This document shows positions 26,959 through 46,219 of a DNA stretch of 46,219 nucleotides, piece after piece (position 1 is the stretch's first letter; each line of letters begins with the position of its first letter). Below the pieces are notes generated by a model that saw only the letters and a program-made list of their open reading frames with translations, made no database searches and had not been told where the DNA came from. The position numbers and the translations under genes are program-made. Source of the stretch: Verrucomicrobiota bacterium (GTDB lineage Bacteria; Verrucomicrobiota; Verrucomicrobiia; Limisphaerales; Palsa-1400); NCBI GenBank assembly GCA_049510745.1, contig JBEKYR010000043.1, forward strand, positions 1 to 46,219. Reading direction: 5' to 3'.

Positions 26959-27816
26959 ATGAAAAAACTGTGCGGCATTGCGGTGCTTTTGGCGGTGGCG
27001 ATTGTCTGCTTGCGACAGCGGCAGGCAACCCCTGATCCAGAGGGGCGGTTTGGGACGGCGGTCCCGGCGGCCAATCCAGCGCCATCGTCCGGGCCAATCG
27101 TCCCGGAAACGGAAACCTCCGCTCCGGCTGTGCAACCCTCCGAGCAGATAGTTGATGAGGGCAGCGCCATTGCGCCGGCGGTTTCCAGCGCCGCAGCCGA
27201 TGCGGCTGACGCATCCGCGGCGGTGGCCGGTTCCTCGGTGGCGTCGCGGGAAAGGCATGGCAAATTGAATTCACCGCAAAAACCGTTGACCGCGGAAACC
27301 GCCTATCTGGCGACCCTGCCGCCGGTCGAAACGATCGTGCTGGAGGAGGAGGAAAACGGCCAGGTGATCTTTCAAGCAGACCCCGCGACGATGGGGCCAG
27401 ACGGCTTTCCTCTGCTTTTGCAAGCGGCGATGGAAAAGCCGGACGAAGTCGCGGCCGTCGATTTGGTGGCGATGTTCCAGTCGGAGGAAAGCGCCGAAAC
27501 CAAGCTGGAAATCCTTAGTGCGTCAAGTTTGCTGGAGCCGGATCAAAACACGCAAAAACTCCTGGAACTGGCGCTCGGTCCTGATCAACCGCAGGAACTG
27601 CGCATTGCGGCCGTGGCGTACATGGCTGATCAAGATCCCTCCAAGCTGGCTTCCTATTTCCACGACTCCGACCCGGATGTGAGCCTTGAGGCGCAAAGTG
27701 CCTATGAGAGGCTTAGCCTGCCCGCGCCGACCACAATCATTGGGTACCAGGCGCAGCCCCCGCCACAAAATCTGGCCACTCCCCCTGACTCGATAAATTA
27801 TGTTCGCACGCATTAG
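26959..27816 (+). CDS. Membrane-anchored acidic protein with HEAT-like C-terminus
   Basis: MKKLCGIAVLLAVAIVC N-terminus; ELRIAAV..DSDPDVSLEA HEAT-like motifs; 2 nt after the upstream stop, overlaps the downstream start. Confidence 0.65.
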   Translation: MKKLCGIAVLLAVAIVCLRQRQATPDPEGRFGTAVPAANPAPSSGPIVPETETSAPAVQPSEQIVDEGSAIAPAVSSAAADAADASAAVAGSSVASRERHGKLNSPQKPLTAETAYLATLPPVETIVLEEEENGQVIFQADPATMGPDGFPLLLQAAMEKPDEVAAVDLVAMFQSEESAETKLEILSASSLLEPDQNTQKLLELALGPDQPQELRIAAVAYMADQDPSKLASYFHDSDPDVSLEAQSAYERLSLPAPTTIIGYQAQPPPQNLATPPDSINYVRTH

Positions 27817-32000: not shown

Positions 32001-32207
32001 TTAGGCTTGCTTCCAATTGCGCAAGGTCATCGTCAGGCCGACGATGGCGGCGACGCTGCCGCCGATGAGCATCCAGACGGCCTTGTCAGTCGGCGAGCCG
32101 GTAAAGAACCGGGAAACGTCGGAGCTGAAGGAATTTGTGGCGTTGACGCCAACAATGATGAGGACGACCCCGCCAACCAGCAGGGCCAGGGAGACGATCT
32201 TATTCAT
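32001..32207 (-). CDS. DUF3185-family small membrane protein
   Basis: MNKIVSLALLVGGVVLII..SSDVSRFFTGSPTDKAVWMLIGG. Confidence 0.85.
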   Translation of the reverse strand: MNKIVSLALLVGGVVLIIVGVNATNSFSSDVSRFFTGSPTDKAVWMLIGGSVAAIVGLTMTLRNWKQA

Positions 32208-32268
32208 AAAAAGCTTTCAATGAGTTTTCAATTTATCGGAGGGCTAATCGGCTCTTCATTTCCCCCAA

Positions 32269-32421
32269 TCACAAAACTGGTTTGCGGCCGGAAATGAGGT
32301 TGACGAGTATCATGACGATGGCGATCACCAGCAGGATGTGAATAAACCCGCCGATGGTGTAACTGCTGACCATGCCAAGCAGCCACAAAATGATCAATAC
32401 TATTGCAAGTGTGTATAACAT
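32269..32421 (-). CDS. lmo0937-family (DUF5670) small membrane protein, absent from the ORF track
   Basis: Manual translation MLYTLAIVLIILWLLGMVSSYTIGGFIHILLVIAIVMILVNLISGRKPVL*. Confidence 0.88.
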   Translation of the reverse strand: MLYTLAIVLIILWLLGMVSSYTIGGFIHILLVIAIVMILVNLISGRKPVL

Positions 32422-32496
32422 ATAATTTTTCTTTCAGTTTCTTTTGTTCACTGCGGGCCGGCGCGTTTTTGCGCCAGCCCAAAGTAATAGGCCGGT

Positions 32497-33282
32497 TCAG
32501 TTATTCGATGCAGTCACGACCTCGATGGTCATGTTGTTGATCACGCTGACGACGCCGTTGATGTCGGCGGCCAGCTTGGTGACCAGACTTTTCTCGGCGG
32601 AGTTTTTGGCAATGCCGCTCAAGGTGACGACGCCGTCGGACGTTGAAACCGTGGTGTGCAGGGCGCTGGTGGAGCGGTGAGCCAGCAAGGAGGATTTGAC
32701 CTGGGCGGTGATGGAGGCGTCATCGATTTTCTCGCCGATGGTGGTGTCCGGCGCTGGCGGAGTTTTGGCGACTGTCATGTCGTTCTTAACCTCTTTGACA
32801 TTGTCGATGTCCCGGGCGTACTCGGTGGTGAGTTCCTTTTGGGCCAGACTGCTGGCTTCACCCTGCAAAGTGACGATGCCGTCTTTGACATAGACGGTGG
32901 TTCCGCTGGCGCTGACATTGCGATGGAAAAGAAGCGTGGTTTTCACTTTTGTGCAGATCCAGCCATCGGAATGTTCGGCGGGTTGTTCGCCGGTGACTTG
33001 CAGTTGGTTGTCCACACTTTTGACTCCCGGCAGGCTGGCCACAGTATCCTGGGCCAGGGACTTATGGGACGGTTCGGCGACCGTGCCGGTCAGCGTGACG
33101 ATGCCGTTTTTGGACTGGGTCTTGATGGAATCGTCCTTGAGGTAGGTTTTGAACACGTAGGACTTTGCGGCGGAGGCCTCGATGCGGCTGTCCGTCTCGG
33201 ACGCGCGCGATGAGGTGCTGGTGGCTAAGATGGCGCTCGTGGCTGCGAGGAGCGCGAGCAAGCCGGTAATTTTCATTTTCAT
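32497..33282 (-). CDS. Periplasmic BON-domain protein (OsmY-like, three BON domains)
   Basis: Signal peptide; three G(I/V)VTLxG...V(D/K/I)NxL/M repeats; DDASITAQVK. Confidence 0.9.
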   Translation of the reverse strand: MKMKITGLLALLAATSAILATSTSSRASETDSRIEASAAKSYVFKTYLKDDSIKTQSKNGIVTLTGTVAEPSHKSLAQDTVASLPGVKSVDNQLQVTGEQPAEHSDGWICTKVKTTLLFHRNVSASGTTVYVKDGIVTLQGEASSLAQKELTTEYARDIDNVKEVKNDMTVAKTPPAPDTTIGEKIDDASITAQVKSSLLAHRSTSALHTTVSTSDGVVTLSGIAKNSAEKSLVTKLAADINGVVSVINNMTIEVVTASNN

Positions 33283-33338: not shown

Positions 33339-33383
33339 ACTATAAGTCCCGCGCCGATTCCTGGCTATGGGGTGTAACCCTAC
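33339..33383 (-). promoter_or_regulatory. Regulon box 1 plus -10 element, upstream of BON / lmo0937 / DUF3185
   Basis: ATGGGGTGTAACCCTAC at 33367-33383; TATAGT (minus) at 33339-33344; 22-nt gap. Confidence 0.7.
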
Positions 33384-33410
33384 CGCGGACCAGAACTGCC
33401 TCAAGGTCCA

Positions 33411-34394
33411 TCATGGATAGAACGCCCGGTAGAAGCGCATGGCCGCAGCCGAAGCCGTGGTGTCGAGATACGTGTAAGGGCTGACGGTCGGGGTCGGCGT
33501 GGCGAGAGTGGTCCAGTTTATCAGGTTCGTGGAGGTTTGCAGCGTGAGGGTGAAGTTCGGCGTGTTGTTGATGACGAGCGTGACTGTGCCGTTGGCCGCG
33601 CGGGAAATGGGGCCGAAGATTGGCGGCGCCGGCAGCAGGTTTGGAATGGTGATGGTTGTGGATTCCAAAGTGACCGCGGCAGTCTGTGCCAACGCCCTGC
33701 CGTCCAGCGTTGCGCCGGTGGCAAACGTGATCGAGTCATGGGCCATGATGGTTCCTTGGAAGATCGTGGTCGTTCCAAGCGCGGCAGAAGTGCCGACCTG
33801 CCAAAAAATGTTGGAAGCCTGGGCGCCGCCGGCAAGGATGACCTGGATGCCATCGTCCACGGTGAGTGTAGAGGCTATCTGAAAAATCCAGACATCAGTT
33901 GCTCCGCCCGCGAGCATAAGGGCTGATCCCGATATTAAAGCGGCCCCCGTGAATTTGTAAAGACCACCATTGCTGAGGGTCAGCCCGCCTAAATTTCCGC
34001 TGCCGGGATTCAAAAAAGGGCCCGTCGGCACCGGGGTTCGTCCGGCAGCGTCGTTATAGGCGATGGTCAAATCGCCCTGGGCACGAGTCAACATAACGGC
34101 AGTGGCCCCTCCATCACTGGCCGCATAGATTGACCCGGTCACTTCTGGCGACGTTAATCCACTTATGTAAGACCTGGCCGCTGGACTCAATCCGACGTCT
34201 CCCGTAATAGCAGACGCGGGGACGTCGGTAATTTCGCTCGCCGCCAGAATCGCGAAACGGCTGGTGGATAAAAGGTTTACCGGCAACTGCCCCGCCGTGG
34301 CGCCAGGGTGCGGAAAGATCACGGCCATCGCCAGGCCGATGATCAGTCCCCGGACATTGAAAGTGTTGTTCTTATTTACAAATGTGTTTTCCAT
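33411..34394 (-). CDS. DUF3494 ice-binding-like protein with C-terminal ...RFYR domain
   Basis: VNLLSTSRFAILA, ITGDVGLSP, AQGDLTIAYNDAAG, WIFQI, NIFWQVGTSA, GRALAQTAAVTL. Confidence 0.9.
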   Translation of the reverse strand: MENTFVNKNNTFNVRGLIIGLAMAVIFPHPGATAGQLPVNLLSTSRFAILAASEITDVPASAITGDVGLSPAARSYISGLTSPEVTGSIYAASDGGATAVMLTRAQGDLTIAYNDAAGRTPVPTGPFLNPGSGNLGGLTLSNGGLYKFTGAALISGSALMLAGGATDVWIFQIASTLTVDDGIQVILAGGAQASNIFWQVGTSAALGTTTIFQGTIMAHDSITFATGATLDGRALAQTAAVTLESTTITIPNLLPAPPIFGPISRAANGTVTLVINNTPNFTLTLQTSTNLINWTTLATPTPTVSPYTYLDTTASAAAMRFYRAFYP

Positions 34395-34442
34395 TAAAAT
34401 CTCCTTCGTTTTTCATGTTTGTTGGCCTGCAGGCATATCGCC

Positions 34443-34847
34443 TCACGGCGCGATTCTGTCGCTCACCCACTGGCGCGCCTGGTGGAAACCGTCCTTTAAC
34501 TCAATGTAGGCTGTCCGTGAGCCGGCCTTGACGTCGTCCCAGGTGGCCTCAGTGGCGCTCATGACGGCGTCGAGCTGCTGATGCAATTTGGCGGTTTGAT
34601 CGCGCAACGCCTGATGTTTGGGTTGGGCTTCGGCCTTGATGGCGGCGCTGGATTTTTCGATTTTGGCGGCGATCTGGTCCAAATCCCGGTTGATCTCGGC
34701 CATCTGGCCCCGCATTTTTTCGACGAAGGCAGCCTTTTGTGCGAAGGTGTAGTCCTTCATATCCTGAACGGCTGCTTTCGTTTTGGTTTTGACCTCGTCA
34801 AGCTGCTGAGAGGCGGGGGGCGTGATGGCTGGTGTCGTCTGTTTCAT
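34443..34847 (-). CDS. Coiled-coil stress-type hypothetical protein
   Basis: Helical K/Q/A-rich ORF with ATEATWDDVKAG motif; preceded by regulon box 2; start uncertain. Confidence 0.65.
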   Translation of the reverse strand: MKQTTPAITPPASQQLDEVKTKTKAAVQDMKDYTFAQKAAFVEKMRGQMAEINRDLDQIAAKIEKSSAAIKAEAQPKHQALRDQTAKLHQQLDAVMSATEATWDDVKAGSRTAYIELKDGFHQARQWVSDRIAP

Positions 34848-34905
34848 AATTATGTCTTTCGTCGGATTTGAGATCTGCAATTGTTTTGTGTCGCGATTCT
34901 CAGTG

Positions 34906-34950
34906 ACGTTACGCCAGCGGGCGGCTCTCAGCTATGGGGTGTTACCCGAC
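34906..34950 (-). promoter_or_regulatory. Regulon box 2 plus -10 element
   Basis: ATGGGGTGTTACCCGAC at 34934-34950; TAACGT (minus) at 34906-34911; 22-nt gap. Confidence 0.7.
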
Positions 34951-35055
34951 CGTGCTGTGCGGGAGTCGGCGGCGAGGTTCAAGGGAATTGGGCAACCCGC
35001 CATTGAATTGCCGGAGGGGGCGTACGGGCGAGCAGCGGCCACCGGCATCAAACGC

Positions 35056-35083
35056 AAAAAAGGCCGCCTGCGATCAGGCGGCC
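35056..35083 (-). terminator. Rho-independent terminator of the VPDSG ice-binding gene
   Basis: Perfect 9-bp stem GGCCGCCTG-cgat-CAGGCGGCC followed by T6 on the minus strand. Confidence 0.8.
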
Positions 35084-35111
35084 GTTGCATTGCCGGGCAA
35101 AAGAGAAGCTG

Positions 35112-35999
35112 TTAAGCCGGGGAGGGGAACCGCCGTCTCAAGGCGAACAGAGCCGCCAATCCGGAGCCGAGCAGCAGAAGCGTGCTGCCACTATCCGGCG
35201 CCGGCGCGCCTCCATTACCGCCGTTACCGCCATTCCCTTGAACCTCCGCCGCCGGCACCGTAATGGTAGTGTCGATCAAGGTAACCGCAGCAGTCTCTGC
35301 CAGCAGCCGGCCATCCACCGTTGAGCCGCCGGCGTCCGAGATTGATGCCTTGGCCAGAATGTTCCCCTCGAAGTCAGTGTCTGTTCCGAGCGTCGCCGAA
35401 CTGCCGACCTGCCAAAAAACACTGATGCCTGGAGCGGAGTTGTCGTCGTTCTTCATTACCACTGAACTATCCGATCCCGTGGTGAGGGTTGATCCGATTT
35501 GGAAAACGAAGACTGGATCGGCGAGGCCCTCGCCGTCGAGCGTCAGGGTTCCGTCGAGCAGTATATCTGAGTAAGAAAAGGAGTAAACCCCGGGCTTCAA
35601 TGTCAGCCCCGCAAGTTCCTGGCCCGGGATATTCCCGGTCGGTGTAAGCCCGGCGGCTGTGTTATAGGCAGTGGTCAAGTCAGTTTGGGCTTGTTGGGCA
35701 ACCGCATCGGTCACATGCATTGTCCCATTGACTATTCCTGGCGGAAAGCCTGTCACCGAAGTACCTGGGTACAACCCAAGGTTCGCGTTAACAAGCTCCC
35801 CGTTAACGACGGAGTTTCCGGTGCTGGTGACAGTTGAGGCACCCAGCACCGCAAATTTGTTGGCCGTGCCAAGGTCCACCTCAGGCGGAGTTGCCATGGC
35901 GTTATCGTGCAGGAACGTCAGCGCGAGCGCAACGCCGAGGCCCAGGGGAATCCGCTTCGCGCCGTTCCGCATAGCCGTGAGGAAAAGGGTTTCTTTCAT
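35112..35999 (-). CDS. DUF3494 ice-binding-like protein with VPDSG-CTERM sorting signal
   Basis: VDLGTANKFAVLGASTVT, LTLKPGVY, FVFQIGSTLTT, VFWQVGSSATLG, GRLLA; tail APDSGSTLLLLGSGLAALFALRRR. Confidence 0.9.
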   Translation of the reverse strand: MKETLFLTAMRNGAKRIPLGLGVALALTFLHDNAMATPPEVDLGTANKFAVLGASTVTSTGNSVVNGELVNANLGLYPGTSVTGFPPGIVNGTMHVTDAVAQQAQTDLTTAYNTAAGLTPTGNIPGQELAGLTLKPGVYSFSYSDILLDGTLTLDGEGLADPVFVFQIGSTLTTGSDSSVVMKNDDNSAPGISVFWQVGSSATLGTDTDFEGNILAKASISDAGGSTVDGRLLAETAAVTLIDTTITVPAAEVQGNGGNGGNGGAPAPDSGSTLLLLGSGLAALFALRRRFPSPA

Positions 36000-36038
36000 T
36001 GTATGTTTTCCTTTCTTGTCAATTCGCATTGGACTTCC

Positions 36039-36084
36039 AATTTACATTTTAAACCGCGCCTCTGCGATGGGGTGAACACCTAAT
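36039..36084 (-). promoter_or_regulatory. Regulon box 3 plus -10 element
   Basis: ATGGGGTGAACACCTAAT at 36067-36084; TAAATT (minus) at 36039-36044; 22-nt gap. Confidence 0.65.
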
Positions 36085-36412
36085 AGCCCTGGCATGCGCA
36101 ATTGACGCACTCTATTACACACCGATCTATTAGTTCCTCATGTGCAGCTTATTACGTTCCGTATTTTGACATTACTGAATAAATCCATGCAAGTTGTTTA
36201 TATGGAACACAATATGATGTGAATAAGATTTTATCTTTTGGTCGAAAGAAAGCGAAACTGAAAAGAAATCCGACACTTTTTGAGGGCGAATATCTCATCT
36301 CTTTCATCAAATTCCCGCAAGAAATGCGTAAATTGCTGTCGCATAATCACTTACGGGAAACCGCTATCCAGCCTTTTTGATCCGCCTCAAAGTGTAAAGA
36401 AAAACCGGCGTT

Positions 36413-36556
36413 TTACAGTCCGGCGAAACCTCCGGCAGCGCCGTTTGTCAGTGGAAAGACGGCAGGAAAGGCAGGCGAACGGACGGACGACCACGCGGCA
36501 GCTTCGGCTTCCGCGTGGGATTTGTAAATCGCCACGACTGCATTGCTCTTAGTCAT
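36413..36556 (-). pseudogene. Truncated general-stress protein (YflT/DUF1269-like N-terminus)
   Basis: MTKSNAVVAIYKSHAEAEAA resembles the family start; sequence then diverges and stops at 47 aa; retains regulon box 4. Confidence 0.6.
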
Positions 36557-36603
36557 AAATATTCTGTTTTTCTTTTTTGTGATTTTGTTTATTCGCAAGT
36601 GAC

Positions 36604-36647
36604 ACACTAAACGTGGGCTGCCTCTTTGCCATGGCGTGTAACCCCAA
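36604..36647 (-). promoter_or_regulatory. Regulon box 4 plus -10 element
   Basis: ATGGCGTGTAACCCCAA at 36631-36647; TAGTGT (minus) at 36604-36609; 21-nt gap. Confidence 0.6.
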
Positions 36648-36683
36648 GGTGGATGATAAGAGGCGCTTTACCGAAAATTTGCT

Positions 36684-36701
36684 ATGGGGTGTTTACCCCA
36701 T
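36684..36701. promoter_or_regulatory. Regulon box 5 (perfect palindrome) upstream of the kinase-kai operon
   Basis: ATGGGGT-gttt-ACCCCAT. Confidence 0.7.
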
Positions 36702-36800
36702 ATACAAATTAAGGCCATGGCCCGATGTTTACATTGGATTGGCGGCGTGCCGTGGAGAGATCAAGCATCCCGGAGAATCCCGCCTATCCGGCATGAGAGC

Positions 36801-37499
36801 ATGAAACGAAAACTAATTGGGTTGTCACAACGATATGTGACGGCGTTGCGAACACACCTGGAGCAGGGGCCGCGCGCGGGCCTGCAACCGGCGTTGGGAC
36901 TGGGACGCCAGGCTGTCGCCCTCGGTCTGGAGACGCTGGAACTGGCCCGGATGCACGAGCGGGCAGTCACCCTGCTGAAACTCTCCAGCCTCAGAGATGG
37001 GGAGATCAAGCGGGCGGAGATTTTTTTTACCGAGGCCATCACCCCGATCGTGGAGACGCATCGGGCCGCGCGGCAGAGCAAAACGGACTTGAGCCGGCTG
37101 AACGAGACGCTCAACCGGCGCACGCTGGAGCTGGCCGCCGCCAACCGTCAGTTGCAACGGGGCATCATCCGGCGCAAGAGCGTGGAGGCCGCCCTCAAGA
37201 AAAGCGGCGAACACTACACCAAGCTTTTAAAGGAGTCCCTGCAATTGCAGGAAGGGTTGCGGCAACTGACGCACCATATGCTGGCGGCGCAGGAGGATGA
37301 ACGCAAAAAGATCAGCCGTGAACTTCAGAATGAGATCGCCCAGACTCTGTTGGGGATCAATGTCCGGCTGGTTTCCTTGAAACAGGAGGCGCGAAACAAC
37401 ACCAAGGGACTCAAGAAAGAGATCGCCAGCACGCAACGCTTGGTGGTAAAGTCGGCCCAATCGGTGCGGCGGGTCGCCCGTCGATTCAGGAACGAATGA
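36801..37499 (+). CDS. Histidine-kinase paralogue lacking the phospho-His and the ATPase domain (RsbU_N-like + coiled coil + degenerate HisKA_3)
   Basis: Collinear with the N-terminal part of the next gene; ISRELQNEIAQ instead of ISRELHDVIAQ; ends before HATPase. Confidence 0.8.
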   Translation: MKRKLIGLSQRYVTALRTHLEQGPRAGLQPALGLGRQAVALGLETLELARMHERAVTLLKLSSLRDGEIKRAEIFFTEAITPIVETHRAARQSKTDLSRLNETLNRRTLELAAANRQLQRGIIRRKSVEAALKKSGEHYTKLLKESLQLQEGLRQLTHHMLAAQEDERKKISRELQNEIAQTLLGINVRLVSLKQEARNNTKGLKKEIASTQRLVVKSAQSVRRVARRFRNE

Positions 37500-38674
37500 A
37501 ACGCAAGCTCTTCAGTTTGTCGCGACGCTATCAGGCGGCGTTGCGAAGTCACCTGAAGCAGGGCCAGCAGGCCAGCCTGGAGTCGGCGCGGGGACTGGGC
37601 AGCGAGGCCCTGGCTGGCGGGCTGCAGACGCTGGACCTGGCCAGGCTCCACGAGCAAACGCTGGTCACGGAAGTGTTGCCGGGCTGCCCGGCCGGCAAAC
37701 GCGCCGGGCTGATCAAGCAGGCGGGGATTTTTTTTGCCGCGGCGATCACCCCGATCGAGAAGACGCATCGGAGCGCGCGGGAGGCCACCGCCCTCCTGAG
37801 AAAATTCATCGAGACGTTGAGCCAGCGCACGGTGGAGCTGGCCGCCTCGAATGTGGAATTGAGCCTGGAGATCGCCCAGCGCAAGGCGGCGGAAGAAGCG
37901 CTCCAAAAAAGCGAGCATCATTACTCGCAGTTGCTGGAAAAGTCGGAGCGCCTGCAGGAGCAGTTGCGGCAGTTGTCCCGCCAGATACTCTCGGCGCAGG
38001 AGGAGGAGCGAAAGGAAATCAGCCGGGAGCTGCATGATGTGATCGCCCAGACTTTGACGGGCATTAATGTGCGGCTGGCGGCCTTGAAAAAGGAAGCCGC
38101 GATCAACACCAAGGGCCTGGACCGCAACATCGCCCGCACGCAACGCCTGGTGGAAAAATCAGTGGACATCGTGCATCAGTTCGCCCGCGAATTGCGCCCG
38201 GCGGTGCTGGATGATCTGGGGCTGATTCCCGCCCTGCATTCCTACATGAAAAATTTTACCACGCGGACCGGCGTGCGCACTCATTTGACGGCCTTTGCGG
38301 AGGTGGAACAATTGGACACGGCCCGGCGCACGGTGCTGTTTCGCGTCGCCCAGGAAGCGCTGACCAACGTGGCCCGGCATGCGCAAGCCAGCCGGGCGGA
38401 AGTGAGCATCCAAAAACTGCCGGACTGCGTCTGCATGAGAATAAGAGACAACGGCAAATCCTTTGAAGTGGAACGGGTGTTGCACGGGAAGGGAAGCAAA
38501 CGCCTGGGGTTGCTCGGCATGAGGGAACGCTTGGAGATGGTCGGTGGCCATTTCAATGTCGAGTCCGCCCTGGGCAAAGGCACGACCATCCAAGCGCAGA
38601 TGCCACTGGCTGAGGTCCGCGCGGGGGGGGGGGCGGGGAATTCGTTGATAGAGTCTGTCAGGGCGAAACCATGA
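37496..38674 (+). CDS. Soluble NarX/ComP-type sensor histidine kinase (RsbU_N-like input, HisKA_3, HATPase_c)
   Basis: QEEERKEISRELHD, LRPAVLDDLGL, QEALTNVARH, DNG, GLLGMRER. Confidence 0.92.
   Translation: MKRKLFSLSRRYQAALRSHLKQGQQASLESARGLGSEALAGGLQTLDLARLHEQTLVTEVLPGCPAGKRAGLIKQAGIFFAAAITPIEKTHRSAREATALLRKFIETLSQRTVELAASNVELSLEIAQRKAAEEALQKSEHHYSQLLEKSERLQEQLRQLSRQILSAQEEERKEISRELHDVIAQTLTGINVRLAALKKEAAINTKGLDRNIARTQRLVEKSVDIVHQFARELRPAVLDDLGLIPALHSYMKNFTTRTGVRTHLTAFAEVEQLDTARRTVLFRVAQEALTNVARHAQASRAEVSIQKLPDCVCMRIRDNGKSFEVERVLHGKGSKRLGLLGMRERLEMVGGHFNVESALGKGTTIQAQMPLAEVRAGGGAGNSLIESVRAKP
38623..38633 (+). repeat. G11 homopolymer tract in the kinase 3' end
   Basis: gcGGGGGGGGGGGcgggg read directly. 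Confidence 0.85.
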
Positions 38675-38696
38675 ACTTGAAGAAGAATGCCCTTGA

Positions 38697-40454
38697 ATGA
38701 GAATTAACGGTCCCAAGCCCGCCTCCGCAGCGGCTCGTTTGCCCAAGTGTCCCACGGGCATCCAGGGTCTGGACGAAATCACGAGTGGTGGATTGCCGCG
38801 TGGGCGGCCCACGCTGGTGTGCGGCGGCACGGGTTGCGGCAAGACGCTGTTGGCGGTGGAATTCCTGGTTCGCGGCGCGAAGCAGTTCGGCGAGCCGGGC
38901 GTTTTCATGTCCTTCGAGGAGACGTTCGCGGAGTTGAAGAGCAACGTCGCGTCGCTCGGATTTGATTTGGGGGGCTTGGTCCGGCGCAAAAAGATTGTGC
39001 TCGACCACGTATACATCGAACGCAGTGAAATCACGGAAACGGGCGAGTATGACCTGGAAGGGTTGTTCGTCCGGCTCAATCACGCGATTGATTCGATCGG
39101 CGCCCGGCGAGTGGTGCTCGACACGCTGGAAGCGTTGTTTGCCGGCCTGCCGAACGAAGCGATCTTGCGGGCCGAATTGCGCCGGCTCTTCCGCTGGCTC
39201 AAAGACAAAGGCGTGACGGCCGTCATTACGGCCGAGCGCGGGCGCGAACAACTGACGCGCCACGGGCTGGAGGAATACGTGTCCGACTGCGTCATCCTGC
39301 TCGATCATCGGGTCAATGAGCAGATTGCCACGCGGCATCTGCGTGTGGTGAAATATCGCGGGGCGCTGCACGGCACCAACGAATTTCCCTTCCTCATCGG
39401 GGAAGAGGGCCTGAGCGTGTTGCCCATCACGTCGCTGGGGCTGAACCACAAGGTGTCAAGCGTGCGGATTTCCACCGGCATCCCGCGGCTCGATGCGATG
39501 CTGGGCGGGCGGGGTTTTTTTCATGGCAGCAGCATTCTGCTCACGGGCACGCCCGGCACGGGCAAGACCAGCGTGGCCGCCCATTTTGCCCAAGCCGCCG
39601 CCCGGCGCGGGGAGCGCGCGCTGTTCTTCTCGTTCGAGGAATCGCCCAACCAGATCATCCGCAACATGCGTTCCATCGGGTTGCGCCTGGAGCCGTTGGT
39701 CCAGGGCGGCTTGCTGCGGTTTCACGCCGCGCGGCCCACGCTCTGCGGCCTGGAAATGCACCTGGCCACGATGTTCAGGGAGATCGCCGCGTTTCAACCC
39801 GCCGTCGTCATCGTGGACCCGATTACCAGCCTGCTGACCGCGGGCACCGACTCCGAAACCAAGGGGATGGTGACGCGGCTGATCGATTTTCTGAAAGGCG
39901 GCCAAGTTACCTCGTTCTTCACCAGTCTGACGCACGGGGGCCACGCGCTGCAACAGAGTGAAATCGCCATGTCCTCGCTCATGGACTCCTGGCTGTTGTT
40001 GCAGGACTTCGAAGGCAACGGCGAACGCAATCGCGTGCTTTACGTGCTCAAAGCGCGTGGCATGGCGCACTCAAACCAGGTGCGCGAATTCCTGATTTCC
40101 AACCGGGGCATTGACCTAGTGGACGCTTACATCGGTCCCAGCGGCGTCTTGACCGGCGCGTCCCGTGTGGCGCAAACCGCCCGCGAAAGAGCCGAAGCGC
40201 TCGGCAGCCAGCAGGAAGCCGGGCGCCGCAAGCGCGAATTAGAGCGCAAACGCGCGGCGCTCGAACGGCAAATCGGCGGGCTGCGCTCCGAGCACGAAGC
40301 CAGCGCCGAAGAACTTCGGCGCATTGACGAACAGGCCGGAACGCAAATGCGCTTGCTGACCCGGGAGCGAACTGAATTGGGCCGCTTGCGCCAGGCAGAT
40401 GGTGCGGTGGCGGCCAGCGCGCGGGGCAACACCAAACCGAAGAGCAAACGATGA
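38697..40454 (+). CDS. kaiC: KaiC-family double RecA-type ATPase (KaiC2-like) with C-terminal coiled coil
   Basis: Two Walker A motifs ([16 protein letters not shown]); SFEE in both domains; MSSLMD at the phosphosite position; [14 protein letters not shown]. Confidence 0.95.
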
Positions 40455-40780
40455 AAACCAGAACCGTGAAACGAGGAGAGTCCGGCTCTCATCGCCGCCC
40501 AGCCAGACTCTGGCAACTGCGCCTTTATGTGGCCGGCCAGACGCCCAAATCGCTGACGGCATTTTCGAACCTGAAGAAGATTTGCGAAGACCACCTCAAG
40601 GGCCGCTATCGCATCGAGGTGCTTGATTTGTTGGAGCAGCCCCAACTTTCCAAAGGCGATCAGATCCTGGCCATTCCCACGCTCGTGCGCAAGCTGCCTC
40701 AGCCCGTGCGAAAAATCATTGGCGACCTGTCCAACACCGAGCGCGTGCTCGTCGGGTTGGATTTGCGCCCCGCCGATTAA
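40451..40780 (+). CDS. kaiB: KaiB-family protein
   Basis: [35 protein letters not shown]. Confidence 0.95.
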
Positions 40781-40795
40781 CCGAGACGTACGCCC

Positions 40796-41149
40796 GTGAA
40801 AACAAACAAAAGCAGCCGCGCGACCAAGGCCTTTGAAAAGGCGCTGGCCACCCGGCCCACGGGCAAATACGTCCTGCGACTGTACGTGGCGGGGGCCACC
40901 GCCCGATCACGCCAGGCTCTCCTGCGGGTCCGCACACTGTGCGAAACCGAACTCAACGGCGAATACGAACTGGAAGTGATTGACGTCTATCAGCAGCCCA
41001 TCCTGGCGCGGGACGGCCAGATCGTGGCGACCCCGACGCTGGTCCGGGAATTCCCGCGGCCCGTGCGCCGGCTCATTGGCAACCTGTCCAACACCACCGG
41101 CCTGTTTGTCGGGTTGGATTTGGACACGAAGGAGAAAGCGGCATTTTGA
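40796..41149 (+). CDS. kaiB: Second KaiB-family protein
   Basis: YVLRLYVAG..LEVIDVYQQP..IVATPTLVREFPRPVRRLIGNLS. Confidence 0.92.
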   Translation: MKTNKSSRATKAFEKALATRPTGKYVLRLYVAGATARSRQALLRVRTLCETELNGEYELEVIDVYQQPILARDGQIVATPTLVREFPRPVRRLIGNLSNTTGLFVGLDLDTKEKAAF

Positions 41150-42369
41150 AAACTGCCCGCCGCCAACGCACCTCCCGCCCCGCGCCGTCCCGCGAACTTG
41201 CCGAAGTGCGCGCTCGCCTGGCCGACGCCGAGGAAACGCTGCGCGCGATCCGCACCGGCGAAGTGGATGCGGTGGTGGTCGCAGGCAGACAAGGCCCGCA
41301 AGTGTTCACGCTGGAAGGGGCCGAGCACGCCTACCGGGTGCTGATCGAATGCATGAACGAAGGGGCGCTGATCTTGACGGCGGACGGGGTGATCCTTTAC
41401 GCCAACCAGTGCTTCGCCAGAATGGTCAAACGCCCGCTGGAGCGGGTGTTGGGTTCGTCCTTTCACCGCGTTCTCTCCGTGGCGAACCAGGCCGTGCTGC
41501 GACCGCTCCTGAAACGAACGGTCAAATCCGGGTTCAAAATCCAGGCGCTCCTGCACGCCGGCGACGGTTCCCAACTGCCGGCGCACATCTCGAGTTGTCC
41601 GCTGGCAAAGAATGGCGCCAAAAGCGCGACCTTCGGCATCGTGGTGACCGACATGACGGAGGCCCGGCGCAACGAGGAAATGCTGCGGGCCTTGACGCAC
41701 CGGGTGGTGCAAGCGCAGGAAGCCGAGCGCAGGCTCGTGGCCCTCGAATTGCACGACCACATTACCCAGCATCTCTGCGCTGTTCTGGCGCGCTGGGGGG
41801 CACTGGCGAACAAACTGCCGGCGGGGGAGAAAGGATCGCGGGAAGAGGTGATGAAACTCAGCGAGATGCTGGGCAAGACTGTCGAAGAAGTGCAGCGCAT
41901 CGCGCGCAATCTGCGGCCCAGCGTCTTGGACGAGCTGGGCCTGGTTCCCGCCCTGCGCGCCACTTGCACGGAGTTCGCAGGTCGGACGGGCGTGTCCCTC
42001 AAGCTGGCCTGCAAGCGGTTGACCGCCCGGCTGCCAGCCGAAATCGAGTTGGCGCTCTACCGCATCCTCCAGAAAACTTTGGAGAATGTGGAGAAGCACG
42101 CTCGGGCCCGCCACGTGACGGTGCAGTTGACGAAGCAGGGGAACATCGTGCAGTTGACGATCAAGGACGACGGGATCGGCTTCGACCCGGATCAACCTCC
42201 GGCCAGACGAAAGAAAAAGCGCGACTTTGGCCTGCTCCGAATGCGCGAGCGAGCGACCTATGTGGGCGGGGCCCTCACGGTCAAATCCGTTCGCGGCGCG
42301 GGCACGGAAATCGAGGTGCGCATTCCTCTGCCGCCAAGTGCGACGGCGGCTAACCGAACTGACTTATGA
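41146..42369 (+). CDS. PAS-domain HisKA_3 sensor histidine kinase
   Basis: AEETLRAIRTGEVDAVVV N-terminus; MNEGAL..YAN PAS; ELHD H-box; DDGIGFD. Confidence 0.9.
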   Translation: MKTARRQRTSRPAPSRELAEVRARLADAEETLRAIRTGEVDAVVVAGRQGPQVFTLEGAEHAYRVLIECMNEGALILTADGVILYANQCFARMVKRPLERVLGSSFHRVLSVANQAVLRPLLKRTVKSGFKIQALLHAGDGSQLPAHISSCPLAKNGAKSATFGIVVTDMTEARRNEEMLRALTHRVVQAQEAERRLVALELHDHITQHLCAVLARWGALANKLPAGEKGSREEVMKLSEMLGKTVEEVQRIARNLRPSVLDELGLVPALRATCTEFAGRTGVSLKLACKRLTARLPAEIELALYRILQKTLENVEKHARARHVTVQLTKQGNIVQLTIKDDGIGFDPDQPPARRKKKRDFGLLRMRERATYVGGALTVKSVRGAGTEIEVRIPLPPSATAANRTDL

Positions 42370-43043
42370 AACGAATCACTGTGCTGCTGGCGGAAGACCA
42401 TACGATCGTGCGGGAGGGATTTCGCAAGATGCTCGAACTGGAGGACGACCTGGAAGTGGTCGGCGAAGCGCCCGACGGCCGCCAAGCGGTCGCGCTGGCC
42501 AAAGAACTTCGCCCCGACGTGGTGTTGATGGACATCGCGATGCCGCTGCTCAATGGTTTGGAGGCCACCCGCCAGGTGCTCAAAGCCCTGCCCGCCACCC
42601 GAGTGCTCATTCTTTCGGCGCACAGTGATGACGCGTATGTCAAATCCGCGACCGAGTCCGGCGCGGTGGGATTTCTGCTCAAACAAACCTCCGCCCACGA
42701 TGTGTGCCGGGCGATTCGGGAAGTCCAAAAGGGCAACACGTTTTTCGGCTCCGCAGTTTCCAGGCGTCTGAATCGTCTCAATTCGCATTCGCCCGACCGC
42801 GCGGGAGTGGTCAACAAGAAGGGCGCCCAACTGACTTCGCGCGAGATGGAAGTGCTGCAATTGATTGCCGAAGGCAAAGCCAACAAGGAAACCGCGGCGG
42901 AACTGGGCATCGGCCTCAAGACCGTCGAGAAGCATCGCGAGCATCTCATGCAGAAGCTCGACATCCACGACACCGCCGGACTGACCCGCTACGCCATCGG
43001 CGCGGGCATCATCGAGAGCAGCGTGCAGGTGACGATCGTCTGA
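42366..43043 (+). CDS. NarL/LuxR-family DNA-binding response regulator
   Basis: LAEDH, DVVLMDIAMP, FLLK; LTSREMEVLQLIAEG..NKE..KTVEKHREHLMQKL. Confidence 0.95.
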   Translation: MKRITVLLAEDHTIVREGFRKMLELEDDLEVVGEAPDGRQAVALAKELRPDVVLMDIAMPLLNGLEATRQVLKALPATRVLILSAHSDDAYVKSATESGAVGFLLKQTSAHDVCRAIREVQKGNTFFGSAVSRRLNRLNSHSPDRAGVVNKKGAQLTSREMEVLQLIAEGKANKETAAELGIGLKTVEKHREHLMQKLDIHDTAGLTRYAIGAGIIESSVQVTIV

Positions 43044-43153
43044 CGCGGAGAACCCTCCTCCTTCATCCAGGAAGAAACGGCCTTGGGCCGCCCACAGGGC
43101 CGCAGATCGGCCGGGAAAATCCGGGACGGATTCAGCAAGTCTGATTTGAGGGA

Positions 43154-43199
43154 CTGGGGTGAATACCCCATAGCGCACATGGGGTGTTTTGCTTACCTT
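43154..43199 (+). promoter_or_regulatory. Regulon box 6 plus -10 element, with an extra half-site at 43179
   Basis: CTGGGGTGAATACCCCAT at 43154-43171; TACCTT at 43194-43199; 22-nt gap containing ATGGGGTG. Confidence 0.7.
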
Positions 43200-43204
43200 A
43201 TGCC

Positions 43205-44677
43205 ATGAACTCCAAAGACGCTACGATGCCAGAAAATCAGCCATTACTGGCGGAGGATTTAGGCCAAGCCGTGGCTCGCGTTGAAGGCGAGATAAAGAAG
43301 AAAAATCAAGACGCTTACGTGCCCGGACACGACACGCGGATGAAGTGGGCAGAGGCGCGGACGGAGCGGGCGGAGGCGCGGACGGAACAGGCCAAGACGC
43401 GGATTGAGCAGGCGGAGATGCGCACGGAGCAGGCGGAGACGCGGACGGAACAGGCCAAGACACGGACGGAGCAGGCGGAAATGCGGACGGAGCAGGCGGA
43501 GATGCGGTTGGAACAGGCCGAGACGCGAGGTGAGGAGGCGATACGCGCCTCAGAAGTCAGTTATCGGCGGTTGTTCGAAGCGGCGAGGGACGGCATCCTG
43601 ATTCTGGACGCCGAGACGGGCCGCATCAACGATGTGAACCCATTTCTGATTGAACTGCTGGGTTTTTCTCACAGCGAAATGATCGGCAAAACCGTCGGGG
43701 AGGTGAGTCCGTTCAAAGACATTGAGTCGCACAAGCTCATGCTCGAGCGATTACAAAAGGACGGGTATGTCCGCTATGAAGATCTGCCGCTGGAAACCAG
43801 GGACGGCCGCAAGATCGCCGTGGAGTTTGTCAGCAACGTGTATCAAGCCGGTGAAAAGAGAGTGATCCAGTGCAACGTCCGCGACATCACGGAGCGGAAA
43901 CGGGCGGAGGAACAAATCCGGGTTCTCAACGCGGAACTGGAGCAACGGGTCGTCCAACGCACGGCGCAACTGCAAACCGCCAACGAGGACCTGGAAGCGT
44001 TCAGCTATTCCGTCTCCCACGATTTGCGCGCGCCGCTGCGCCACGTGGCGGGCTTCGTGGACCTGCTGCAAAAGGGCGCCGGGCCGTCGCTGGCAAAAAA
44101 GAACGTCCGCTATCTGACGATTATTGCCGAATCGGCGAAACGGATGGGGAGTCTGATTGACGACCTGCTGGCGTTCTCGCGCGTGGGGCGGGCGGAACTG
44201 CAAAAGACGGAGGTCAATCTCGACGAGTTGGTCCGGGAGACATTGGGCGATTTTCAGGCGGAGACGAAGGAGCGAAACATTGCCTGGGAAATTCACCCGC
44301 TGCCAGTGGTGCGGGCCGACCGTGCCCTGCTGCGCCTGGCGCTGGTCAATCTGATCTCCAATGCCGTGAAGTTCACCGGCGCTCGCGCCGAGGCCAAAAT
44401 CGAAATCGGTTGCGCTCCCAGTGGGGAGAGCGAGACAGTGATCTTCATTCGCGACAACGGGGCCGGCTTCGATCCGCGGTATGCCAACAAGCTTTTCAGC
44501 GTCTTTCAACGCCTGCACAGCCAGGAGGAGTTCGAGGGCACGGGCATCGGCCTGGCGAACGTCCAGCGCATCATTCACCGCCACGGCGGCCGGACGTGGG
44601 CGGAAGGCGCGGTGAACGGCGGCGCGACATTTTACTTTTCAATCCCAAAACAAAACGGAGAGATCAATGGACATTGA
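43205..44677 (+). CDS. PAS sensor histidine kinase (phytochrome-kinase-like HisKA) with N-terminal heptad repeats
   Basis: FSYSVSHDLRAPLR, NLISNAVKF, DNGAGFD, FQRLH..GTGIGLA; start uncertain (43205 or 43226). Confidence 0.92.
   Translation: MNSKDATMPENQPLLAEDLGQAVARVEGEIKKKNQDAYVPGHDTRMKWAEARTERAEARTEQAKTRIEQAEMRTEQAETRTEQAKTRTEQAEMRTEQAEMRLEQAETRGEEAIRASEVSYRRLFEAARDGILILDAETGRINDVNPFLIELLGFSHSEMIGKTVGEVSPFKDIESHKLMLERLQKDGYVRYEDLPLETRDGRKIAVEFVSNVYQAGEKRVIQCNVRDITERKRAEEQIRVLNAELEQRVVQRTAQLQTANEDLEAFSYSVSHDLRAPLRHVAGFVDLLQKGAGPSLAKKNVRYLTIIAESAKRMGSLIDDLLAFSRVGRAELQKTEVNLDELVRETLGDFQAETKERNIAWEIHPLPVVRADRALLRLALVNLISNAVKFTGARAEAKIEIGCAPSGESETVIFIRDNGAGFDPRYANKLFSVFQRLHSQEEFEGTGIGLANVQRIIHRHGGRTWAEGAVNGGATFYFSIPKQNGEINGH
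43352..43540 (+). repeat. 21-bp tandem repeat, about 9 copies, encoding ExRTEQA heptads
   Basis: gcggacggagcaggcggaga-type units repeated in frame. Confidence 0.85.
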
Positions 44678-44737: not shown

Positions 44738-46219
44738 ATGAAATCCCCACTCCGCATTCTGCACTTGGAGGATGATGCGGACGATGCCGCGCTCGTGCAA
44801 TCCACCCTGGAAGCCGAGGGCATCACGTGTGCGATCACCTGCGCGCAAAACCGCGATGCTTTTGTCGCGGCGCTCGAACATGGCGGTGTTGACTTGATCC
44901 TTTCGGATTACACGCTGCCCGGGTTTGATGGGTTGTCCGCGGCGGAAATCGTGCATGCCAAGTGGCCGGCCATACCTTTGATTTTCGTGTCCGGGACGCT
45001 GGGCGAGGAACGGGCCGTTGATTCGCTCAAGAGCGGCGCGACGGATTATGTGCTGAAGGGACATCTCGGCCGGCTCGCTCCGGCGGTGCGCCGCGCCATG
45101 CAGGAAGTCGAAGAGCGGGCGGGGAATCGGCGGACGGAAGAGGCGTTGCGGGAGTCCGAGCAACGGTTACGGATCGTCTTCAGTGAATCGCCCCTGGGGA
45201 TCGCGCTGGTCGGGGTGGATCGCCGTCCAGTCCTGACCAACGCAGCCCTGCAGAAAATGCTCGGCTACACGGGCGAGGAGTTGAGCCGGATGCCCTTCCA
45301 CGATTTGACGCATCCGGACGATCGCGCCAAGGACCTGGAGCTTTACCAGCAATTGATTCAGGGGGCGCGCAGAGGTTACCAAATAGAAAAGCGCTACATC
45401 CGCAAGGACGGCCAGGTGGTTTGGGCGCGTCTCTCGGTGAGCGCGGCGTGCCAGACGGCGGGCCACGCCGAGTTCGCCGTTGGGATGGTCGAGGATATCA
45501 CGGAGCACCGGCAGTTGGAGGCGCAGTTTATCGAAGCGCAAAAGATGGAAGTGATCGGCCAGCTCGCCGGCGGCGTGGCCCATGACTTTAACAACATCCT
45601 CGCCGTCATCATGGGTTACAGCGATTTGGCGATTCAGAGACCAGGCACTGACGAGGCGATCAGAAGTTATCTGGAGACGATCCGGGCGGCGGCCGAGCGC
45701 GCGGCGGGGCTGACCCGGCAACTGCTCATCTTCAGCCGCAAACAGACGGTGCAACCGGTGGTTCTGGACATCAACGAGGTGGTGAAAGACCTGGACAAAA
45801 TGCTGCGGCGGCTCATCGACGAGAACATCGCACTGACGGTTGTCCCCGGAAAACAAATCGGACGCATCAAGGCCGACTCCGGCTACGTCGGACAAGTGCT
45901 GATGAACCTGGTGGTCAATGCCCGCGACGCCATGCCCAACGGCGGCAGGCTCACCATCGCCACAAACGATGCCACGCTCGATGAGAACTACGCGCGCGCC
46001 CACAAGGGGGCCATTCCCGGCGACTACGTGATGTTCAGTGTCAGTGACACGGGAACCGGCATGAGCGAGGAAATCAAAGCGCGCCTGTTCGAGGCGTTTT
46101 TCACCACCAAGCCCAAGGGCAAAGGCACCGGTCTGGGGCTGGCGACCTGCCAGACCATCGTCCAACAATCCGGCGGTTACATCGGCGTTTGCAGTGAGAT
46201 GGGCAAAGGCACGACCTTC
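44738..46219 (+). CDS. Hybrid sensor kinase REC-PAS-HisKA-HATPase (runs off the window; absent from the ORF track)
   Basis: Manual translation: MKSPLRILHLEDD..ILSDYTLP; THPDD..RKDG PAS; LAGGVAHDFNNIL; NLVVNARDAM; FFTTKPKGKGTGLGL. Confidence 0.93.
   Translation, partial: MKSPLRILHLEDDADDAALVQSTLEAEGITCAITCAQNRDAFVAALEHGGVDLILSDYTLPGFDGLSAAEIVHAKWPAIPLIFVSGTLGEERAVDSLKSGATDYVLKGHLGRLAPAVRRAMQEVEERAGNRRTEEALRESEQRLRIVFSESPLGIALVGVDRRPVLTNAALQKMLGYTGEELSRMPFHDLTHPDDRAKDLELYQQLIQGARRGYQIEKRYIRKDGQVVWARLSVSAACQTAGHAEFAVGMVEDITEHRQLEAQFIEAQKMEVIGQLAGGVAHDFNNILAVIMGYSDLAIQRPGTDEAIRSYLETIRAAAERAAGLTRQLLIFSRKQTVQPVVLDINEVVKDLDKMLRRLIDENIALTVVPGKQIGRIKADSGYVGQVLMNLVVNARDAMPNGGRLTIATNDATLDENYARAHKGAIPGDYVMFSVSDTGTGMSEEIKARLFEAFFTTKPKGKGTGLGLATCQTIVQQSGGYIGVCSEMGKGTTF

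Follow-up and report, generated by a model that had tools for sequence, protein, structure and literature searches.

A two-length palindromic box phased to predicted promoters in Verrucomicrobiota and the NarL-family response regulator that likely binds it

Features of the locus

The 46,219-nt stretch analysed here (the window) is contig JBEKYR010000043.1 of a Verrucomicrobiota bacterium (assembly GCA_049510745.1, order Limisphaerales), and is designated contig C43 of this 5.6-Mb genome; other genomes are designated by G numbers. Its last 14 kb carry genes for BON, ice-binding-like and small membrane proteins, a group of kinase, kaiC and kaiB genes, the gene of a NarL-family response regulator, and a palindromic box (Table 1). 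This box occurs in two lengths, keeps a fixed distance and orientation to -10-like hexamers, is conserved across Verrucomicrobiota and is linked to the gene of the regulator. A first-pass annotation had listed six boxes and a half-site, none within genes, and had proposed that the regulator at 42366 acts through them. All six boxes and the half-site were found at the coordinates given there, every box was intergenic, and the five spacers of 21 or 22 nt to a TAnnnT hexamer were confirmed.

Table 1. Coordinates of the boxes and of the genes of interest, in window positions unless a contig is named.
Feature	Position	Strand	Remarks
Triple-BON protein, lmo0937-family (DUF5670) and DUF3185 small membrane proteins	32001..33282	-	Behind box 1
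Box 1	33367..33383	-	17-bp; TATAGT at 33344-33339, spacer 22; predicted +1 ~33332; precedes BON, lmo0937 and DUF3185 genes
Ice-binding-like protein	33411-34394	-	Behind box 2
sll1863-family stress protein	34443-34847	-	Behind box 2
Box 2	34934..34950	-	17-bp; TAACGT at 34911-34906, spacer 22; predicted +1 ~34899; precedes sll1863-family and ice-binding genes
Ice-binding-like protein with VPDSG-CTERM	35112..35999	-	Domain scan
Box 3	36067..36084	-	18-bp; TAAATT at 36044-36039, spacer 22; predicted +1 ~36032
Gene remnant	36413..36556	-	First 21 codons match a box-led protein of ~185 aa in relatives, then diverge; no family hit
Box 4	36631..36647	-	17-bp, weakest (16.1 bits); TAGTGT at 36609-36604, spacer 21; precedes the truncated gene remnant
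Box 5	36684..36701	+	Perfect 18-bp palindrome; GATGTT at 36724-36729, offset 22; faces the kinase-kaiCBB-regulator operon
Short kinase paralogue	36801..37499	+	RsbU_N-like helical domain and HisKA_3, no ATPase domain; His replaced by Gln (RELQN for RELHD)
Cytoplasmic HisKA_3 kinase	37496..38674	+	N-terminal four-helix domain
kaiC and two kaiB genes	38697..41149	+	kaiC above cut-off for PRK09302; accessory
PAS and HisKA_3 kinase	41146..42369	+	Domain scan
Response regulator, NarL/FixJ family	42366..43043	+	Receiver and GerE helix-turn-helix (HTH); recognition helix LKTVEKHREH
Box 6	43154..43171	+	18-bp; TACCTT at 43194-43199, spacer 22
Half-site	43179..43186	+	Between box 6 and its -10 hexamer
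PAS-HisKA kinase	43205..44677	+	Behind box 6
Open reading frame	44738..46219	+	Reads as receiver-PAS kinase; runs off the contig
Second NarL-type protein	C21:68781-69386 (HTH 68784-69008)		Coiled-coil-HTH fusion, receiver-less

The two forms of the box

The longer form is an 18-bp palindrome, ATGGGGT-N4-ACCCCAT, with two arms of seven bases round a spacer of four (7-4-7), and the shorter one a 17-bp element, GTAGGGT-N3-ACCCCAT (7-3-7). The consensus as first written, ATGGGGTGNNACCC, therefore needs correction, since the element is longer and has two lengths. With up to two mismatches, ATGGGGTGNNACCC matched the window six times, against a mean of 4.49 in shuffled sequences (24 of 100 shuffles reached six); one of the matches was intragenic (13282), and the box at 43154 was missed. 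As standalone evidence this pattern was not above chance at two mismatches, and a two-length scoring matrix was used in its place.

Among the individual copies, box 3 carries an ACCTAAT arm and scored only 14.6 bits in its functional direction with the two-length matrix; its promoter duplicates one on contig C56 of the same genome. The ATG at 43205, downstream of box 6, coincides with the predicted transcription start, as in a leaderless message. The half-site at 43179 is probably due to chance, because it is absent from the three homologous promoters inspected (G006, G007 and G020). Box 5 had been given without a hexamer; no TAnnnT indeed lies towards the kinase operon, but GATGTT does sit at offset 22 on the plus strand.

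Distribution and promoter spacing

Motif discovery and a scan of the whole genome were carried out with a matrix built from 18 sites, all outside contig C43; genes were called with a hexamer-based caller, whose start codons are approximate. The sequence ATGGGGT-N4-ACCCCAT occurs in six exact copies and eight with one mismatch, and GTAGGGT-N3-ACCCCAT adds further sites. The six window boxes were recovered by the matrix with 33.6, 33.1, 27.5, 25.9, 23.0 and 16.1 bits. At 17 bits or more the genome gave 36 strand-hits, 34 of them intergenic, and the reversed-genome control none; at 16 bits or more, 28 sites were obtained (26 intergenic). A TAnnnT hexamer was present at offset 21-24 in 21 of these 28 sites, all 21 facing a co-directional gene, with a background of 2.6% per such window; this figure is not blind, since the 18 seed sites had been oriented with the downstream sequence in view. 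The box is thus specific and largely intergenic, and the regulon, described at first within the window, is genome-wide in scope.

Independent tests of the spacing were made with sites round the best 80 homologues of the regulator, out of at least 578 that were confirmed, and with metagenome sites selected by motif. In the 1.11 Mb surrounding the homologues, 249 strand-hits were found against one in the control, and 66 of the 80 loci carry a site. In the 209 sites round the homologues, oriented by score alone, TAnnnT lay at 21-24 in 124 (78 at 22 and 32 at 23), compared with 9/209 on the opposite side. The 128 metagenome sites, chosen by motif only, had the hexamer at offsets 21-23 in 84 cases, 60 of them at 22. 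On viral contigs 119 stretches fit a loose pattern; these matches are due to chance, because the 91 distinct sites examined show no spacing peak.

Both forms are common among the relatives (89 of the 209 sites are 7-4-7) and differ in spacing, the 17-bp form lying at offset 22 in 62/76 sites and the 18-bp form at 22 in 16/48 and at 23 in 23/48. The 17-bp form is asymmetric: its distal half reads GTAGGGT in 84 of 120 sites, and an A-C mismatch is kept in most copies. Across the 209 sites the promoter-proximal half is nearly invariant, and the next three bases, RGC, are conserved on the promoter side only; they would be a partial -35 element.

If the -10 hexamer is taken to start at -12, the box is centred at -43 (17-bp) or -43.5/-44.5 (18-bp) for most sites, and at -42 to -43.5 in the window. 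The centre of a CAP class II site is -41.5 (PMC10853779), which is found at neither the boxes of the window nor those of the relatives. NarL activates from -43.5 at yeaR and from -44.5 at ogt, a noncanonical class II arrangement acting through the alpha-CTD of RNA polymerase, and its action at -43.5 involves no contact of the activator with sigma region 4 (PMC10853779). The class II geometry first proposed therefore stands as a fixed, one-sided, class II-like placement, but of this NarL-yeaR type and not of the CAP type.

A TAnnnT hexamer 6 nt before an ATG was seen behind 25/48 of the 18-bp boxes versus 13/76 of the 17-bp boxes. Leaderless starts as a feature unique to the regulon were rejected, as the peak at a gap of 6 is seen in the whole genome too (37 of 1075 genes, with about 9 expected at each offset); this general excess suggests leaderless mRNAs in the lineage.

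The candidate regulator

The regulator at 42366 has Pfam Response_reg (95.8 bits) and GerE (64.9 bits) domains, both above cut-off, and its phospho-acceptor residues are intact (E10-D11, D56, S84 and K106; a D-I-A-M-P-type motif is present in 78/80 homologues). Its closest named relatives belong to Verrucomicrobiota, several to Limisphaerales or subdivision 3. The top PDB hit of its HTH was EsrB (7vim, 56.4 bits). The site reported for EsrB is ATCAGGTgattACCCGAT (PMC6592360), and 11 of its 14 arm bases are identical to those of the box. The site of SsrB is likewise 18 bp and 7-4-7, and tolerates loss of spacer (PMC2837388), which offers by analogy a precedent for the two spacer lengths.

In 27 genomes of the family, the box and the regulator (at least 65% identity) were present together in 21, neither was present in four, and each occurred alone in one; G003 and G026 are counted as box-positive on a single match each. 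In a sample of 300 genomes of the phylum, with nine candidates scored per genome, a homologue (E<=1e-70) was found in 9 of the 13 genomes with boxes and in 21 of the 287 without (Fisher p 1.6e-7, overstated by kinship among the genomes). Follow-up of the box-positive genomes gave a 61% homologue truncated by a contig end, with three boxes within 0.8 kb (G181), a 48% homologue (G269), and no close homologue in G171 and G224. In G179, G064, G043, G306 and G181 the distance between regulator and boxes is about 2 kb at most.

The regulator is likely the protein that binds the box, because the two co-occur and co-locate across the phylum and the EsrB HTH reads a 7-4-7 site matching 11/14 arm bases. 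The proposal of the first-pass annotation has thus gained comparative support, with the regulator as a candidate binder. We hold with good confidence that the six boxes are sites from which the phosphorylated regulator would activate housekeeping-type promoters, in a general-stress-like regulon of about 26 sites that includes its own operon.

Besides the kinship of the genomes and the orientation of the seed sites, several observations weigh against this assignment. Eight pairs of sites in the genome share flanks, so some boxes arose by promoter duplication. Genome G024 has the regulator and no boxes; in G023, an assembly of about 630 contigs that is 85% complete, 15 strand-matches were found but no regulator exceeding 34% identity; and G011-G013 have paralogues of 57-58% identity with a near-identical helix, but only 1-3 matches versus 0-2 in the control. 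In G331 the box is changed (four copies of TCTGGT-N3-ACCTKAT, all with TAnnnT at 22-23) and the recognition helix is essentially unchanged. Of the four FKT(V/I)DKHRQ regulators searched, a single one has the 17-bp variant GGGGGATACCCCC beside it, and near-canonical boxes are kept in G003.

Two loci whose regulators carry the helix FKTVDKHRQ share an altered palindrome, ATCGGGG-N4-CCCCGAT, at the kinase promoter, a hint of co-variation between helix and box, and one of the two has three GGGGGATACCCCC boxes within 8 kb. A residue-to-box co-evolution analysis was attempted and gave a hint only, from two related loci; GGGGGRTACCCCC was present in 2/5 genomes and an earlier, stricter pattern was uninformative. 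G331 and G332 have four and six matches to ACCTKAT-type boxes with little change in the recognition helix, which indicates either tolerance or another binder.

Alternative explanations

A second clade of NarL-type HTH proteins (helix KTVEYHRMKL; a full regulator in some genomes) could itself be the binder, or could form with the 42366 regulator a heterodimer that reads the asymmetric 17-bp form. Its gene on contig C21 has its own perfect box, the asymmetry of the 17-bp form is consistent, the clade occurs in 9/125 motif-selected metagenome loci versus 7/125 for the regulator, and its HTH also has EsrB as top PDB hit (53.7 versus 56.4 bits); the last two points likewise speak against the 42366 regulator. 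We nevertheless consider this unlikely. The second clade is best read as a target or helper, because it was found in only 8 of 22 box-positive genomes of the family and in none of the 13 of the phylum. Loci of Kiritimatiellae and Lentisphaerae carry only 17-bp boxes, and no close homologue of the clade was found outside the class in the 300-genome sample.

The C21 protein consists of the heptad-repeat N-terminus of the 43205 kinase, with its promoter, fused to an HTH; the promoter and 5' end duplicate 43155-43494. Similar fusions were observed in G006, G014, G020, G025 and several metagenome loci. In a tree of the genome's LuxR proteins, from which one too-short row was left out, the C21 protein grouped with the regulator on a very long branch (6.89), and this tree was not used.

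It is quite improbable that the box is bound by a transcription factor encoded elsewhere, such as one of the genome's three Crp/Fnr-family proteins, and that the regulator is merely a target. The genome does have three Crp-type HTH genes and 23 GerE-type genes above cut-off, the box of G331 changes without a change in the regulator helix, and G023 has boxes where no regulator was found. However, a Crp-type gene was seen in 0/125 motif-selected loci, no other DNA-binding family was evident (by eye, from N-termini) in the 60 commonest gene clusters near the 80 regulators, and a 7-4-7 code like that of EsrB and SsrB speaks for the NarL family.

The first-pass annotation had itself named two alternatives, an alternative-sigma element and a repeat unrelated to promoters, and both fit poorly. 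For the former, the nearly invariant proximal half with the one-sided RGC would be the upstream element of an alternative sigma factor; judged from box and hexamer, we regard this as highly improbable, as conservation extends to the distal half in the form of an inverted repeat, the -10 is of the group-1 TAnnnT type, and the 22-23 nt from box end to hexamer exceed the usual spacer lengths of sigma factors. A dispersed repeat or hairpin of the repetitive extragenic palindromic type has next to no probability: the 18-bp form could fold into a 7-bp stem with a 4-nt loop and some copies spread by promoter duplication, but the box keeps a constant distance to TAnnnT on one side only and is upstream of the predicted start, its flanks diverge, the 17-bp form keeps its A-C mismatch in most copies, and all 21 spaced sites point to co-directional genes.

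The kinase-regulator operon and proposed mechanism

Between 36801 and 43043 neighbouring genes overlap or are at most 22 nt apart, so that one operon would include the regulator at 42366. The HisKA_3 kinases at 37496 and 41146 are linked to it, and the former is likely its cognate kinase. The His-Asp pair is kept in 55/56 long homologues, the histidine is lost in 26/38 short ones, and both the short and the long gene are present in 35/57 loci.

The start of the short-kinase gene was located in 43 loci, 25 of which have a box in the preceding 300 nt (one at 256 nt, probably belonging to another promoter). The hexamer at offset 22 has A2 and T6 for all 25 boxes and begins with G for 18 of them. 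Although homologous, these promoters have diverged in the 22 nt between box and hexamer, and the weak GAnnnT -10 thus appears to be selected. Box 5 would likely drive this conserved weak promoter of the regulator's operon, and the feedback loop first suggested for it is supported by the 25 promoters.

Both upstream kinases are without transmembrane segments (maximum 19-residue hydropathy 0.91 and 1.18). Their input domain scored 23-25 bits for Pfam RsbU_N, under the cut-off of 25.5, and was modelled as four helices (pLDDT 91). Its best structural matches were to the KaiA C-terminal domain, with Z 9.2 (1r5q, rmsd 3.2, 88 residues aligned) and 9.1, scores that are common for helical bundles; a designed bundle and a stressosome-type globin (3zta, Z 8.7) tied with KaiA, a second such globin reached Z 7.7 and RsbU (1w53) Z 6.8. 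A Foldseek search with this domain gave no match at E<=0.001. RsbU_N has the same fold as the KaiA C-terminal domain (PMC11372060), and in Pseudomonas stress resistance involves KaiC homologues that act together with kinases (10.1101/2022.01.26.477890). The input signal might be an intracellular energy, redox or starvation cue, a guess judged only from the targets.

In the proposed mechanism, the cytoplasmic 37496 kinase would phosphorylate Asp56 of the regulator, and the regulator dimer would then bind the box (at about -43 for the 17-bp and -43.5/-44.5 for the 18-bp form) and recruit RNA polymerase as NarL does at yeaR; of a -35 element, the box-led promoters would retain only T(-35) and G(-33). 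The deliberately weak GAnnnT -10 would make the kinase-regulator operon activator-dependent and so create positive feedback, and the His-less short paralogue may modulate the kinase. A broader model is tentative and, on balance, doubtful: a general stress response of Verrucomicrobiota without a dedicated sigma factor, in which a self-amplifying kinase pair senses through the domain resembling KaiA-C and RsbU_N, possibly with KaiC-KaiB input, and one regulator with the SsrB/EsrB DNA code serves two promoter classes, 17-bp boxes at 22 before mostly leadered effectors and 18-bp boxes at 22-23 before often leaderless signalling genes.

Some other features of these genes were recorded. KaiC (38697-40454) has a long C-terminal coiled coil and reads IAMSSLMD in the region of the second-ring site, and the two kaiB genes come after it. 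At its N-terminus the PAS kinase has a coiled coil, a perfect-looking heptad repeat (R-T-E-Q-A-E-x) encoded at 43205-43550, where the DNA contains internal repeats. At the locus of G024 the regulator is intact, but the kinases next to it are shortened or broken, a second regulator is split and boxes are absent; this is possibly a decaying regulon.

Comparison with known systems

The regulator scored below the cut-off of NCBIfam PRK15369 (150 versus 242 bits), which we take to be the SsrB family. The system differs from those of SsrB (Salmonella) and EsrB (Edwardsiella) in its cytoplasmic HisKA_3 kinases, fixed 17-bp class and stress and storage targets; no secretion-apparatus genes were found among the box-led genes scanned. 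It resembles them in the NarL-family HTH with a KTVExHR helix, the 18-bp 7-4-7 repeat and the flexible spacer (PMC2837388, PMC6592360), and the left arm of the EsrB site, when reverse-complemented, is identical to ACCTGAT, the variant half-site of G331 and G332 (PMC6592360).

With NarX/NarL of Escherichia coli (yeaR and ogt) it shares a receiver-HTH regulator with a HisKA_3 kinase and a dimer centred at -43.5/-44.5 beside a weak -35, whereas NarL reads a 7-2-7 site (TAACCAATAAATGGTA at yeaR) of other sequence and arm orientation (PMC10853779). The regulator is under the cut-offs of NarL (136 versus 250 bits) and NarP (111 versus 343 bits), and nitrate-respiration genes are absent from the annotated targets. 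RcsB is similar in its purine-rich left arm, N4 spacer and lysine at the start of helix 9, and differs in its 14-bp site TN(G/A)GA-N4-TC(T/C)NA, weak read-out and auxiliary partners (PMC7913699). DosR/DevR and OsdR are also self-regulated NarL-family systems with boxes clustered at their own locus and stress genes among the targets, but the site of OsdR is AGGGCCGATCGGCCCT (PMC5069765). Of DosR-type features, no GAF domain was seen in the kinases of the window and no USP domain in the 42 island proteins scanned, without a whole-genome USP search.

The general stress regulons run by sigma factors (SigB, RpoS and EcfG) likewise contain BON, ElaB/DUF883, Dps, PRC-barrel, lmo0937 and glycogen genes, and the kinase input domain may resemble the RsbU_N, KaiA C-terminal and RsbR-type helical bundles. 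Here, in contrast, an activator appears to control group-1-type promoters, and a special sigma motif is absent.

No description of the motif or regulon, and no mapped stress regulon for Verrucomicrobiota, was found in the open-access literature, and PMC3333781 and PMC10783764 yielded nothing relevant to it; it is thus an apparently undescribed, phylum-wide activator regulon with a familiar mechanism. Boxes number six here, about 20 more in the genome and hundreds in related Verrucomicrobia, a phylum abundant in soils, peat and fresh water. The analysis yields a precisely defined motif together with candidates for the regulator and the kinase and a list of targets (BON, Dps, glycogen and phosphoketolase enzymes, cytochrome bd and the alternate F1F0 ATPase), and the motif could be used to read the stress state from metatranscriptomes. 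For the recognition code of the NarL family, the 11/14 agreement with the EsrB site is a further data point. If the 42366 regulator binds the boxes, it would be a stress switch.

Target genes and neighbouring features

Annotation of targets was based on 42 chosen island or box-led proteins. Box-led genes and operons in the genome code for phosphoketolase, DUF3309, a Zn alcohol dehydrogenase with Dps, PRC-barrel, MlaA, a GH94 glucan enzyme, BON, DUF5670, an AMPK1_CBM protein, 6-phosphogluconate dehydrogenase, a P-type ATPase, an ABC exporter, B12 radical SAM proteins and an alternate F1F0 ATPase operon. Glycogen phosphorylase, phosphoglucomutase, cytochrome bd and ElaB are co-directional in the island with no box directly in front. 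BON, lmo0937, Dps, glycogen, cytochrome bd and alternate ATPase genes are likely among the targets, a content of general-stress and storage type.

Neighbours in the 80 homologous loci were a HisKA_3 pair (63), lmo0937 (22), BON (17), receiver-only proteins (16), KaiC (12) and ice-binding proteins (10). The comparative data support the BON, small membrane stress and downstream kinase genes proposed as targets, but the ice-binding genes are only occasional members (10/80 loci).

The alternate F1F0 operon (contig C8:229374-236297), presumably N-ATPase-like, lies directly behind a bidirectional box with TACAAT at offset 22. The remnant at 36413-36556, for which the name YflT/GS17M-like is assumed with no family hit behind it, has a second box-led counterpart at contig C30:56216-56299 (79% over 86 nt), and the gene is intact (about 185 aa) in relatives.

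The end of contig C43 (46098-46219) is an assembly repeat junction, sharing 122 bp with the ends of both C21 and C58; contig C19 ends in a paralogous kinase pair. C21 is favoured as the continuation of C43 by the gene order of G006 and G007, and the two joined would form a single island, about 48 kb long, in which 12 of the 28 sites lie. Convergent with the left edge of the island, 27800-31993 encodes an exported RCC1-repeat protein of 1397 aa.

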